From: an uncultured Alphaproteobacteria bacterium
GTDB lineage: Bacteria > Pseudomonadota > Alphaproteobacteria > MPNO01 > DASWLB01
Length of the DNA stretch: 64,000 nucleotides
Assembly (NCBI GenBank): GCA_963826605.1
Contig: CAWGXN010000001.1
Span: forward strand, 1,495,835-1,559,834
Direction of reading: 5' to 3'
This document shows, one piece after another, positions 80 to 4,988 of the stretch (the first letter of the stretch is position 1; every line of letters begins with the position of its first letter). Position numbers and translations under genes: made by a program. The notes under the pieces were generated by a model. The model saw only the letters and a list, made by a program, of their open reading frames with translations, was not told the DNA's origin and did not search any database.

Positions 80-506
80 ATGGCCGACGATCCGCAGACC
101 CCCGCGACCGGCGCGCCCGGTGCCCAGGCCCCGCGTGGCGCCCCCGACGCCTCGCGCGGCAACGCCGACCTTCCGCTCGACCCGCTCGAGGCCGCGAGCC
201 GACGACGGCGAGGCGCTGCTCAAGCGGCCCGAGCAGCCGGACGACCTGCCCTCGGGCCACGAGCTCGACGCCGTGTACGACATCCCGGTCCAGGTCTCGG
301 CCGTGCTGGGCAGCACCACCATGCAGGTGAGCCAGCTCCTGAAGCTGGGCCGCGGCGCGGTCGTCGAGCTCGACCGCAAGGTCGGCGAGGCGATCGACAT
401 CTACGTCAACAACCGGCTGGTCGCGCGCGGCGAGGTGGTGGTGGTCGAGGAGCGGCTGGGCATGACCATGACGGAAATCATCAAAGGCGACCACCACGCC
501 TCCTAG
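80..506 (+). CDS. fliN: flagellar motor switch protein FliN (one frameshift near 200-215)
   Basis: C-terminal '[73 protein letters not shown]' is a typical FliN/SpoA domain. ATG at 80 is preceded by AGGAGA. The N-terminal part lies in frame 2 and the C-terminal part in frame 0. Confidence 0.75.
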
Positions 507-530
507 GCGCGGAACGGCGAGATCGGATTC

Positions 531-1382
531 ATGGCACGCACCCAGGCAGCACGGGCACGCACGCAGGCGCACAGGACGAACGGCGACGTCCGCCGCCGCA
601 CGGCCGGCGCTCGACGTCGCGACCGTTCTGGGCCTCGCCAGCGGGTTCGGGCTGGTCGCCATCGCAATGGTGCTGGGCGGCTCGCCCCGCATGTTCCTCG
701 ACGCGCCGTCGCTGCTGATCGTGGTTGGCGGCACGTTCGGCGTCACGCTGACCTGCTTCAGCCTGCGCGACATGGCGGACCGTCCACCGCACCATCGCCA
801 AGGCCGTCGTTCCATTCCGTGCCGCGCGCCGATGCAGAGGCGCGCCGCATGCTCGCCGCTGGCCGAGGAGTGCCCGCAAGCAGGGCATGCTGTCGTTCGA
901 GCAGTCGCTGCCGGCGCTGCGCGGCAACCCGTTCCTTACCAAGGCGATCTCGATGGTGGCCGACGGCTTCCCCGTCGAGGAGGTCGAGCGCGTCATGCGC
1001 CGCGAGATCGACGAGATGACCGGCCGCCACCGCAAGAGCGCGTCGGTGCTGCGCAAGGCCGCCGAGATCGCGCCGGCGATGGGCCTGATCGGCACGCTGA
1101 TCGGCCTGGTCCAGATGCTCGGCAACCTCGACGACCCGTCCACGATCGGCCCGGCGATGGCGGTCGCGCTGATGACCACCTTCTACGGCGCGGTTCTGGC
1201 CAACATGCTTTTCGCGCCGCTGGCCGCCAAGCTGGAGCGCAACTCCGCCGAGGAGGCGCTGGTCTACAACGTCTATCTGCTGGCCGCCGTCTCGATCGGG
1301 CGCAAGGAGAACCCGCGCCGGCTCGAGATGCTGCTCAACGCCCTGCTGCCGCCCGCCCATGCGCGTGCGCGTCTTCGACTGA
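531..1382 (+). pseudogene. motA: flagellar stator protein MotA/PomA family, multiply frameshifted
   Basis: Pieces in three frames: '[49 protein letters not shown]', then '[13 protein letters not shown]...[54 protein letters not shown]', ending 'NPRRLEMLL'. A TGA lies at 1380 in an alternative frame. Exact start and stop are uncertain. Confidence 0.6.
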
Positions 1383-1404
1383 TAGCCCGGAGAGTCACCG
1401 CGAC

Positions 1405-2804
1405 GATGCGTCTTCTCATCGTCGGACAATTGAACGGACAGATCGGCGCCGCCAGCCGGATCGCCATGTCGCACGGCGCCAAGGTCGCCCATGTCGACGA
1501 CGTCGAGGGCGCGCTGCACACGCTGCGCTCGGGCCGCGGCGCCGACCTGGTGATGGTCGACGTCAAGCTCGACATCAAGGCGCTGATCGGCCGGCTGGAA
1601 AGCGAGCGCATCAGCGTGCCGGTCGTCGGCTGCGGCATGGGCAACGATTCCGAGGGCGCGGTGCGCGCCATCCAGGCCGGCGCGAAGGAATACATCCCGC
1701 TGCCGCCCGACGCCGAGCTGATCGCCGCCGTGCTGGAGGCGGTCACCGAGGAGAACCACGCGATCATCACCCGCGACCCGCAGGTGACGCAGGTGCTGGG
1801 CATGGCCGAGCAGGTGGCGCCGTCCGACGCCTCGATCCTGATCACCGGCGAATCCGGCACCGGCAAGGAGCTGCTGGCCCGCTACATCCACACCAAGAGC
1901 AAGCGCGCGCGCGAGAAGTTCATCTCGGTCAACTGCGCGGCGATCCCCGAGAACCTGCTGGAATCCGAGCTGTTCGGCCACGAGAAGGGCGCCTTCACCG
2001 GCGCGGTCGCGCGCCGCATCGGCAAGTTCGAGGAGGCCAACGGCGGCACGCTGCTGCTCGACGAGATCAGCGAGATGGACCTGCGCCTGCAGGCGAAGCT
2101 GCTGCGCGCCGATCCAGGAGCGCGAGATCGACCGCGTCGGCGGCACGCAGCCGGTCAAGGTCGACATCCGCATCATCGCCACCTCGAACCGCAACATGGA
2201 GGAGGCGGTGGCGAAGGGCGCTGTTCCGCGAGGACCTGCTCTTCCGCCTCAACGTCGTCAACGCTGCTGCTGCCGCCGCTGCGCAGCCGGCCGGCCGACA
2301 TCGAGGCGCTGGCCGACCATTTCATCCGCAAATACGCCGAGGCCAACGGCGTTGCCGGCGCGGCCGCTTGTCCGACGAAGGCCGGCGCAAGCTGCTGGGC
2401 CATGTCTGGCGCGGCAACGTGCGCGAGCTGGAGAACACGATGCACCGCGCCGTGCTGCTCGCCCGCGGCGACGACGATCGACGCCGGACGCCATCATCCT
2501 GTCCAGCCCGCAGCCCCAGTCCGGCGAGACCGCCGCAGCCGGCGCGGCCGGCACGAATGGCGGCGACCAAGCCCCTCGCCCTGCCGGCCGAGACCGCGAC
2601 CCGCTCGCTGGTCGGCTCGACCGTCGCCGAGGTGGAGCGCGACCTGATCATCGACACGCTCTATCACTGCCTCGGCAACCGGACCCATGCCGCGAACATC
2701 CTCGGCATCTCGATCCGGACGCTGCGCAACAAGCTGAAGCAGTACACGCCGAGGAGGGCGTCAGCGTGCCCATGCCGGGCGAGATCGACCGCGCTGCGAT
2801 CTGA
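1405..2804 (+). pseudogene. flbD: sigma-54-dependent flagellar response regulator FlbD/FleQ-like (receiver + AAA+ + Fis-type HTH), about 7 frameshifts
   Basis: 'MRLLIVGQ...DLVMVDVKL' receiver. '[17 protein letters not shown]', '[15 protein letters not shown]' and '[14 protein letters not shown]' sigma-54 activator motifs. '[17 protein letters not shown]' HTH. Segments alternate between all three frames; example inserted G's at about 2112 and 2219. Confidence 0.7.
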
Positions 2805-2851
2805 GCCGACCGGGCCTGCGGCAGTGCCGCGATGACGGCACCGCGTGACCC

Positions 2852-4988
2852 ATGGCTGACGCACAGGCGACGGCACCGGCGGCCGGCGCAGAGAACGCGG
2901 CCGGCTCGAACCCGCTCGAGGCGATCGGCGGGTTCCTGCGCAAGCACGGCGACATCGCGCTCGCGCTCGGGCTGGTCACGCATCCTGGTCGTGCTGATCC
3001 TGCCGATGCCCGAGCTGGCTGCTGGATTTCGCCCTCGCGATCTCGATCACCTTCTCGGTGCTGATCCTGATGACGGCGCTGTTCATCTCGCGGCCGCTCG
3101 ACTTCACGTCCTTCCCGACGGTGCTGCTGATCGCGACGATGCTGCGTCTGGCGCTCAACCTGGCCTCGACGCGGCTGATCCTGGCCAACGGCCACGCCGG
3201 CCCGGCGCCGCCGGCCACGTCATCGAGGCGTTCGGCAATTTCGTCATCGGCGGCAACTTCGTGATCGGCATGATCGTCTTCGCGATCCTGGTGATCGTGA
3301 ACTTCGTCGTCATCACCAAGGGCTCGGGCCGCATCGCCGAGGTCGCGGCGCGCTTCAGCCTGGACGCCATGCCCGGCAAGCAGATGGCGATCGACGCCGA
3401 TCTGTCGGCCGGCCTGATCGACGAGAACGAGGCGCGCACGCGCCGCAAGCAGCTGGAGGACGAGACCAGCTTCTTCGGCGCGATGGACGGCGCGGCCAAG
3501 TTCGTGCGCGGCGACGCGATCGCCGGCCTGCTGATCACCTTCATCAACGTCATCGGCGGCATCGTCATCGGCGTCGCCCAGCAGGGCCTGTCGATCGGCG
3601 ACGCGGCGCACACCTACACCGTGCTGACCATCGGCGACGGGCTGGTCACCCAGATCCCGGCGCTGATCGTCTCGACCGCGGCGGGCATGCTGGTGTCCAA
3701 GGCCGGCGTCACCGGCTCGGCCGACAAGGCGCTGTTCGGCCAGCTCGGCGGCTATCCCACCGCGCTCGGCCATGTGCGTCGTTCCTGACTGCCGCCCTGG
3801 CGCTGCTGCCCGGCATCCCGATGCTGCCCTTCCTCACCCTGTCGGCCCTGACCGGCACGGTCGCGTGGCACCTGCGCGCCCGCAGGGCGCAGGAGGCGCG
3901 AGCGCGAGCGCGCAGGCCGAGGCCGGCAGCCGCCGCCCCGCGCGGAGGAGCCGATCGCCACCGCGCTGCAACTCGACGACGTCCGGCTCGAGCTGGGCTA
4001 CGGCGCTGCTGTCGCTGGTCAACCCCGGCGACGGGCCGATGCTGACCGACCAGATCAAGGCGCTGCGCCGCCAGCTCGCCAACGAGATGGGCTTCGTCAT
4101 GCCCGCCGTGCGCATCCAGGACAACATGCAGCTCGGCGCCAACACCTACGTCATCCGCATCAAGGAGATCGAGGCCGGGCGCGGCGAGCTCCGCCCCAAC
4201 ATGCTGCTGGTCATGGACCCGCGCGGCGAGCCGATCGCGCCTGCCCGGCGAGGACACGACCGAGCCGACCTTCGGCCTGCCCGCCATGTGGGTCGCCGAC
4301 AGCCACCGCGAGGAGGCCGGCTTCCGCGGCTACACCGTGGTCGACCCGCCGACGGTCATCACCACGCATCTGACCGAGGTCATCAAGGACAACATGGCGG
4401 AGCTGCTGTCCTACGCCGAGACCCAGAAGCTGCTCGACGAACTGCGGCAAGGAGCACCAGAAGCTGGTCGCCGACCTGGTCCCGGCGCACATCTCGGTCG
4501 GCGGCGCTGCAGCGCGTGCTGCAGAACCTGCTGTCCGAGCGCATCTCGATCCGCGACCTGCCGACCATCCTCGAGGGCGTCTCCGAGGCCTGCGGCTTCA
4601 CCCAGCACACCACCGCCGATCACCGAGCACGTGCGCGCCCGCCTCGCCCGCCAGATCTCCGACACGGCGCACCGGGCCGGACGGCTACGTCCCGCTGGTC
4701 ACCTTGTCGCCCGAGTGGGAGCAGGCGTTCGCTGGAATCGATCACCGGCCAGGGCGACGACCGGACAGCTCGCCATGGCGCCGTCCAAGCTGCAGGAGTT
4801 CATCGCCAAGGTGCGCGAGACGTTCGACAGGCTGGCGCTCACCGGCGAGACGCGCGGCGCTGCTGACCAGCGGCGCGACGCGCCCCTACGTGCGCTCGAT
4901 CGTCGAGCGCTTCCGCCCGGCCACCATGGTGATGTCGCAGAACGAGATCCACCCCAAGGCCCGGATCAAGACGCTGGGGCAGATATAG
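2852..4988 (+). pseudogene. flhA: flagellar export apparatus protein FlhA, at least 10 frameshifts
   Basis: Recognisable FlhA blocks scattered across frames: '[32 protein letters not shown]', '[48 protein letters not shown]', 'MLTDQIKALRRQLANEMGFVMPAVRIQDN', 'VVDPPTVITTHLTEVIKDNMAELLSYAETQKLLDEL', 'LQRVLQNLLSERISIRDLPTILEGVSEA', C-terminal 'PYVRSIVERFRPATMVMSQNEIHPKARIKTLGQI*'. Confidence 0.75.

Follow-up and report, generated by a model that had tools for sequence, protein, structure and literature searches.

The window analyzed here (the whole stretch of DNA under study, 64,000 nucleotides) opens with a run of flagellar genes on the forward strand: fliN (FliMN_C family, 80-506), motA (MotA_ExbB family, 531-1382), a short motA-flbD spacer (1383-1405), flbD (HTH_8-containing sigma-54 activator, 1406-2804), flhA (FHIPEP family, 2852-4988), flhF (4989-5972) and flhG (ParA/MinD-like, 5969-6766). 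A sequence-only reading had reported dense frame disruptions in the first four genes, and frameshift-aware protein-to-DNA dynamic-programming alignment was used to count them per gene, taking as reference the orthologues in the nearest relative (L127), where they are intact. This alignment replaced tblastn with all stop-to-stop ORFs of an isolate locus, which was noisy at 70% GC. The disruptions were found where they had been placed and were more numerous than claimed, with one frame switch in fliN (one claimed), 6 in motA (at least 3 claimed), 9 in flbD (about 7 claimed) and 15 in flhA (at least 10 claimed).

The single inserted base of fliN lies at ~197-202. Six inserted bases interrupt motA at ~561, 782, 808, 857, 871 and 1358 (frameshifts at 561, 778, 806, 855, 868 and 1355 in the protein-to-DNA alignment), and the last of these masks the true stop codon, TGA at 1380-1382. 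Two further inserted bases fall in the spacer (1391 and 1404) and, together with that at 1358, produce a false fusion ORF spanning 887-2647. All nine frame-shifting events of flbD lie within 2108-2751 (2108, 2217, 2257, 2348, 2364, 2473, 2483, 2553 and 2746), and the first 700 bp of the gene are free of events where 4.6 would be expected at the rate of the patch as a whole. In flhA, 17 single-base insertions and one single-base deletion (3207) leave 15 detectable switches, at 2978, 3012, 3205, 3765, 3778, 3896, 3999, 4237, 4442, 4503, 4615, 4667, 4728, 4765 and 4850; one triple of insertions (3916, 3929 and 3940) amounts in sum to a single in-frame codon. After correction, all four proteins are full length and share 89.5-92% identity with those of L127 (FliN, 90%; MotA, 89.5%; FlbD, 92%; FlhA, 707 aa, 90%). 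The corrected proteins contain no internal stop and the frames between the shifts are open, in keeping with the earlier description of conserved blocks without premature stops.

Immediately downstream, flhF (327 aa, 87% identity to L127 FlhF) and flhG (265 aa) are intact, as previously described, with no frameshift in either, and the queF-like gene was likewise clean in the same alignment. At the patch rate, 11.6 events would be expected across flhF and flhG (P = 9e-6). Two genes further on, the amidohydrolase gene (7159-8796) and a 2.2-kb gene (43459-45648), are also unbroken, as had been noted. FlhF is identical to a recorded protein (P0001) from a 1.84-Mb contig.

DNA alignment to L127 and to a second relative (L001), in which the window was the odd one out, delimited a hot patch of apparently spurious single-base insertions at 63-4852 on the forward strand. 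Within it, 33 concordant single-base insertions are absent from both relatives (~6.5 per kb), accompanied by only one concordant single-base deletion, at 3207. Insertions thus make up about 97% of events (P = 4e-9 for at least 32 of 33 being insertions, given a probability of 0.5). The right edge of the patch lies between 4853 and ~5150, and its start is probably upstream of the window. On the 3' side, flhF, flhG and ~9 kb of coding sequence beyond them are clean. The first concordant coding indel past the patch in the alignment to L127 and L001 is at 14868. A self-trained codon-usage Viterbi model, which needs no reference and was used because ranking ORFs by GC3 only was blind to sense versus antisense, detected frame switches without stops, 15-16 of them inside the patch as against ~10 over the remaining 59 kb (binomial P = 3e-11). 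The excess over the rest of the window is ~40-fold and confined to one 4.8-kb stretch. Event density tracks position and not function.

Homopolymer error had been offered as an example of the possible cause. This association was tested and did not hold, as the extra bases do not extend homopolymers: 29 of 36 differ from both neighbors, compared with 48% expected (P = 7e-5 against random insertion), 81% lie outside homopolymers, only one falls within a run of 3, and 94% are G or C. A search for a shared motif (methylation or slippery site) around 32 sites returned none after multiple testing (best k-mer P 0.003 over ~3,700 tests). Judged by eye, approximately half of the insertions had a mismatch to the relatives within 2 nt, compared with ~43% by chance. 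A chimeric or collapsed consensus was ruled against by the identity profiles to three relatives, which show no jump in the patch, and excess substitution errors by window-only substitutions per 250 bp, which are no higher inside it.

The same type of event recurs across the remaining 59 kb, where ~10 further +1 frameshifts were found in fabH (twice), plsX, gluQRS, the spermidine synthase gene speE, a CLC channel gene and an FAD oxidase gene, among others. In each of these genes one Pfam domain bridges the junction, and fabH and plsX are housekeeping genes. This background of ~1 per 6 kb is considerably lower than the 1 per 1-2 kb estimated previously.

L128 and L129 are assemblies that represent one related species recovered from two samples; they share 99.1% identity, and 7 single-base indels separate them over 21 kb. 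In every broken gene examined (flhA in L129; flhG, an amidohydrolase gene and flgE in L128), the extra base was in the broken copy, and frameshifts were not reproduced between independent assemblies of this sister species. Four sister loci, totaling 84 kb, contained 6 events and no dense patch of comparable kind. A second assembly of the window's own organism was not found in the collections searched: the best loci in a metagenome scan reached ~50% identity or less, and the best match to corrected FlhA was 89%. The closest relatives of the window are nanopore-only MAG contigs generated with metaFlye and Medaka, and L001 comes from the Microflora Danica catalogue of long-read MAGs. That catalogue was assembled using Flye --meta --nano-hq with one Medaka round and no short-read polishing (PMC12313526), and according to the same group nanopore bins below 40-fold coverage require Illumina polishing (PMC9262707). 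From these relatives and the 1.84-Mb source contig, we infer that the window is itself part of a nanopore MAG.

The corrected genes were also compared with their neighbors for signs of altered selection. Pairwise dN/dS was 0.12-0.20, compared with 0.07-0.29 in 11 unbroken neighbors. Where three relatives agreed, window-only amino acid changes affected 3.1% of codons in fliN, motA, flbD and flhA, compared with 3.0% across flhF, flhG and the queF-like gene, and were conservative (e.g., L>V, S>A, I>M, K>R). In contrast, a cruder three-taxon test with L001 as outgroup returned a window-branch nonsynonymous excess in flbD and flhA (odds ratio ~2, P = 0.004). This excess was nominally smaller when three relatives served as the reference: the broken genes then had 41 amino acid and 36 synonymous changes, and their neighbors 21 and 27, respectively. 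Some substitution errors or slight relaxation may thus be present in the corrected genes; on these sequence comparisons, fliN, motA, flbD and flhA nevertheless appear to be under normal purifying selection.

Overall, we consider the disruptions to be a consensus artefact of error-prone long-read metagenome assembly with a local hot patch, to which we assign a probability of about 90%. The sequence-only reading had also preferred indel-type sequencing or assembly error, and this preference is supported by the near-exclusive +1 insertions, the full-length corrected ORFs, the housekeeping genes hit and the differences between sister assemblies. The damage amounts to ~35 isolated surplus bases of a type that error-prone long-read metagenome assembly produces, so that all four genes are almost certainly whole in the organism itself, whose flagellar export gate and stator most likely function. 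In the proposed sequence of events, sporadic extra bases would have entered the consensus throughout the window (~1 per 6 kb), and a much poorer consensus, beginning at or before the window start and ending at ~4.85-5.1 kb, would have accumulated ~6.5 per kb, shredding the reading frames of fliN, motA, flbD and flhA. The local concentration would reflect a locally poor read pile-up, possibly caused by shallow effective depth, by a draft stretch that was never polished or by admixed reads of co-occurring relatives; low coverage is plausible. The error signature remains atypical of nanopore consensus, being almost insertions only, mostly non-homopolymer and G/C-rich.

An admixture of reads would amount to a more specific version of the artefact, in which reads of relatives piled up on a conserved stretch or the assembly followed a low-abundance variant path. 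Three related contigs with the locus (contig_9286, contig_11352 and contig_27693) came from a single sample, ERZ25039495, the patch coincides with the genes most conserved in this neighborhood (88-93% nucleotide identity to relatives), and the insertions are clumped (variance/mean ratio 1.59, P = 0.04; two gaps >700 bp, P = 0.009), all of which would suit a mixed population. However, the insertions showed no apparent enrichment by eye at sites where relatives diverge (about half versus ~43%), identity to each relative does not jump within the patch, and 85-93% identity is probably below the level at which reads cross-map in high-accuracy mode. We regard a mixed pile-up as possible but doubtful.

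Genuine decay is far less probable. Loss of flagella is common among bacteria, and a lineage that had lost motility could be eroding fliN, motA, flbD and flhA through real frameshift mutations; the ORFs are disrupted as read, and the one polarised test above gave a nonsynonymous excess in flbD and flhA. Pseudogene decay in bacteria is, however, deletion-biased and rich in substitutions. Such a spectrum, with lesions of several types, a bias to deletion and nonsense mutations, was sought in the patch and not found: +1 insertions account for 32 of 33 events, unaccompanied by larger out-of-frame indels, by nonsense codons or, in conserved parts, by out-of-frame multi-base deletions, and ~33 indels stand beside conservative amino acid change at background level and normal pairwise dN/dS. 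Nor has decay reached the functionally dependent neighbors flhF and flhG, which would be useless without FlhA, while fabH and plsX were struck by the same type of event and two assemblies of one sister species have reciprocal gene breaks. The very recent inactivation put forward earlier as an alternative leaves both the clean flhF and flhG and the clean first half of flbD unexplained. Slightly less probable again is that a subpopulation truly carries the extra bases in its DNA, either through a local burst of non-homopolymeric +1 G/C insertions limited to ~5 kb of the flagellar locus or because the flagellar segment persists only in a rare variant, at a depth low enough to have yielded the poor consensus; the rare-variant reading would imply a presence/absence polymorphism of fliN-flhA in the population. 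Programmed recoding, in which flagellar gene expression would depend on numerous sites of +1 ribosomal frameshifting or bypass, could account for open and conserved frames between shifts but is effectively refuted by 32 sites that share no motif and are absent from every orthologue examined (single ORFs in L127, L128, L129 and L131), by the two insertions in the non-coding spacer, and by insertions paired or tripled within 10-40 nt.

The value of the assembly artefact lies in quality control, and it brings no new biology. Read literally, the MAG would appear to lack FlhA, MotA, FlbD and FliN and would therefore be classed as non-motile, and databases would gain dozens of fragment "proteins" together with false antisense ORFs; flhA is already fragmented in just such a way in the public gene calls of L129. 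More generally, long-read MAG contigs can hold kilobase-scale patches at ~40 times the contig-average error rate, and as such errors need not sit in homopolymers they would be missed by homopolymer-aware filters.

Flagellar pseudogenes are known from non-motile lineages such as Shigella, Yersinia pestis and Burkholderia mallei, which resemble the locus described here in having frameshifted flhA and motA-type genes in an otherwise syntenic flagellar cluster. Those real pseudogenes carry few lesions per gene, of mixed type (IS elements, deletions, nonsense mutations), under relaxed selection, whereas here a gene can have as many as 18 single-base lesions, lesions of other types are absent, pairwise dN/dS is normal, and the boundary of the affected stretch is sharp and takes no account of function. 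Programmed +1 frameshifting of the prfB type likewise needs a +1 frame change for the full protein to be made, but the sites here number in the dozens, some are non-coding, and neither a conserved shift site nor conservation among orthologues was found. The locus also resembles the gene-fragmenting indel errors described for long-read (nanopore) assemblies and MAGs (PMC9262707, PMC12007338). Shared with these are consensus single-base indels that split otherwise conserved genes, are spread genome-wide and through essential genes, vary between independent assemblies of one species and vanish on orthologue-guided correction. The classic nanopore signature is homopolymer-associated and often deletion-biased, whereas the events here are ~97% insertions, 81% of them outside homopolymers, and are concentrated ~40-fold in a single 4.8-kb stretch.

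At the left end of the window, fliN, motA, flbD, flhA, flhF and flhG follow one another in a gene order that is identical in four related contigs, where the orthologues are called as single genes with the Pfam domains FliMN_C (fliN), MotA_ExbB (motA), Sigma54_activat and HTH_8 (flbD), FHIPEP (flhA), SRP54 (flhF) and ParA (flhG). Among relatives with this locus, L127 (ENA ERZ25039495 contig_9286; 87% FlhF identity) is the closest, followed by L128, L129 and L131 (82%), while all other matches found reached ~68% or less. Three related contigs with the locus come from one sample. 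L127 is closer to the window in flhF (5000-7000), unlike in the amidohydrolase and enoyl-CoA hydratase region (7000-9500), where nucleotide identity is up to 94% for L128 and 80-85% for L127. Such mosaic relatedness is suggestive of recombination between the lineages. Two neighboring short-chain dehydrogenase genes (11182-12781, -) are paralogues, with ~76% identity when cross-aligned to the copies in the relatives.

Because off-frame ORFs run long at the ~70% G+C seen along the entire window, ORF lists alone were ambiguous. Frame disruptions were counted using three independent approaches, which confirmed that fliN, motA, flbD and flhA are broken. A self-trained codon-usage Viterbi model that allowed frame jumps placed fliN and motA in pieces of differing frames and gave 15-16 stop-less switches at 2110-4853, compared with ~10 over the other 59 kb (binomial P = 3e-11). 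Aligning the intact proteins of L127 to the window DNA in a frameshift-aware manner returned one frameshift in fliN, six in motA, nine in flbD and 15 in flhA, with none in flhF, flhG (confirming that both are intact) or a queF-like gene. Plain DNA alignment of 1-17000 with L127 and with L001 (same contig as L129) located 33 single extra bases at 63-4852, hereafter the patch, that were absent from both relatives, and one missing base at 3207. With 17 insertions and one deletion in flhA, the switch counts of the sequence-only reading proved to be lower bounds, and its background of roughly one per 1-2 kb was too high, as we measured ~1 per 6 kb. Past the patch, the next concordant coding indel in this alignment was one additional T at 14868. 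An apparent MotA-FlbD fusion ORF (887-2647) results from three insertions (1358, 1391 and 1404) that jointly skip the motA stop (1380-1382). In the low-complexity N-terminal linker of FliN (122-157), the window has six more in-frame codons than L127, with nine of the extra bases also absent from L001; this is ordinary length variation and no frameshift.

Overall, we consider the frame disruptions to be a consensus artefact, with a probability of about 0.9. Events in the patch were almost exclusively +1 insertions (32/33; P = 4e-9 against an even split), and 30 of 32 inserted bases were G or C. Of the 36 concordant insertions in the alignable 16 kb, 29 matched neither flanking base (random insertion predicts 48%; P = 7e-5), so these are not the homopolymer errors that had been offered as an example. 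No k-mer around the sites was significantly enriched after allowing for ~3,700 tests. The insertions were clumped (variance/mean 1.59, P = 0.04); neither the initial 700 bp of flbD nor flhA 3016-3764 contained any (P = 0.009 for a second gap of 707 bp or longer), and the non-coding motA-flbD spacer held two. Event density tracks a physical stretch of contig that ends between 4853 and ~5150, and the start of the patch probably lies upstream of the window. Together, flhF and flhG (1.78 kb) had no events versus 11.6 expected at the patch rate (P = 9e-6), although both are functionally tied to the flagellum and would not be spared by motility loss. Likewise, relaxed selection does not explain why the first half of flbD is clean and the second half contains nine events.

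Events of the same +1 type break several genes outside the patch, and in most of these, when the two halves are joined, one Pfam domain crosses the junction. These genes encode a gluQRS-like protein (tRNA-synt_1c; ~14327-15098, -; the extra T at 14868 is absent from both L127 and L001), an FAD-linked oxidase (18884), a spermidine synthase (22103), an MFS transporter (28591; junction covered only by a weaker MFS_3 match), FabH (two frameshifts, ~49385 and ~49776, -), PlsX (one, ~50631, -; the FabH and PlsX junctions are covered by ACP_syn_III, Thiolase_N and FA_synthesis) and a CLC channel (56268). Candidate +1 frameshifts from the codon model at 35362 and 36756 (-) in a NiFe-hydrogenase cluster (~34-38 kb) had Pfam matches that did not span the junctions. 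Breaks in the housekeeping genes fabH and plsX would hardly be compatible with a living cell and support an assembly-wide error process.

Genuine pseudogenisation of the flagellar genes, also proposed from sequence alone as a very recent inactivation, is very improbable given the lesion spectrum, the positional boundary and selection tests. Bacterial pseudogene decay is deletion-biased and substitutions far outnumber indels, so that with ~33 real indels, unconstrained substitutions should number in the hundreds and several nonsense codons should be present; neither was seen in the four broken genes. Once the extra bases were removed, FliN, MotA, FlbD and FlhA were full length without internal stops and 89.5-92% identical to L127. 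Pairwise dN/dS against L127 was 0.12-0.20, compared with 0.07-0.29 for eleven unbroken neighbors. Using L001 as outgroup, a three-taxon test suggested a nonsynonymous excess on the window branch in flbD and flhA (OR ~2, P = 0.004). When three relatives were required to agree, window-only amino-acid changes, almost all conservative, affected 41/1,334 codons (3.1%) of the broken genes and 21/709 (3.0%) of their intact neighbors (flhF, flhG and the queF-like gene). Window-only substitutions per 250 bp were not elevated in the patch relative to the sequence beyond it. Programmed recoding can be practically dismissed, as no motif was present and the shifts are absent from every orthologue. The disruptions are not a biological feature.

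Under a consensus artefact, spurious bases would be scattered sporadically over the whole contig, with one kilobase-scale patch at ~40 times that sporadic rate. Candidate local causes are low effective depth, unpolished draft sequence or a mixed pile-up of co-occurring relatives, for the last of which no sequence-level support was found. For the window itself, we infer a nanopore-type assembly from the relatives and a 1.84-Mb contig with identical FlhF. L001 is a Microflora Danica long-read MAG, and that catalogue used metaFlye (nano-hq) and one Medaka round without short-read polishing (PMC12313526). According to the same group, nanopore bins require polishing with Illumina reads when coverage is under 40-fold (PMC9262707), and consensus indels give rise to frameshifted gene calls (PMC9262707; see also PMC12007338). 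Such errors recur between L128 and L129, which represent one species assembled from two samples as their FlhF is identical and they share 99.1% identity over 21 kb. Seven single-base indels separate them; flhA is broken in L129 only, and flhG, an amidohydrolase gene and flgE in L128 only, with the extra base in the broken copy for each of these genes. Two spurious extra A's in L128 (11531 and 18637) share the context CCG[A]ACTC, possibly a motif of systematic error in basecalling or polishing for that data set. No comparably dense patch was found in the four sister loci (84 kb). In L129, a single extra T in flhA (7698-9738) caused FlhA to be replaced in public gene calls by a pair of long antisense ORFs of 282 and 303 aa, which illustrates how such errors pollute databases. 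The present case is otherwise ordinary and serves as a warning for long-read MAG annotation, where false motility-gene loss, fragment proteins and antisense calls can arise as they did for L129 flhA.
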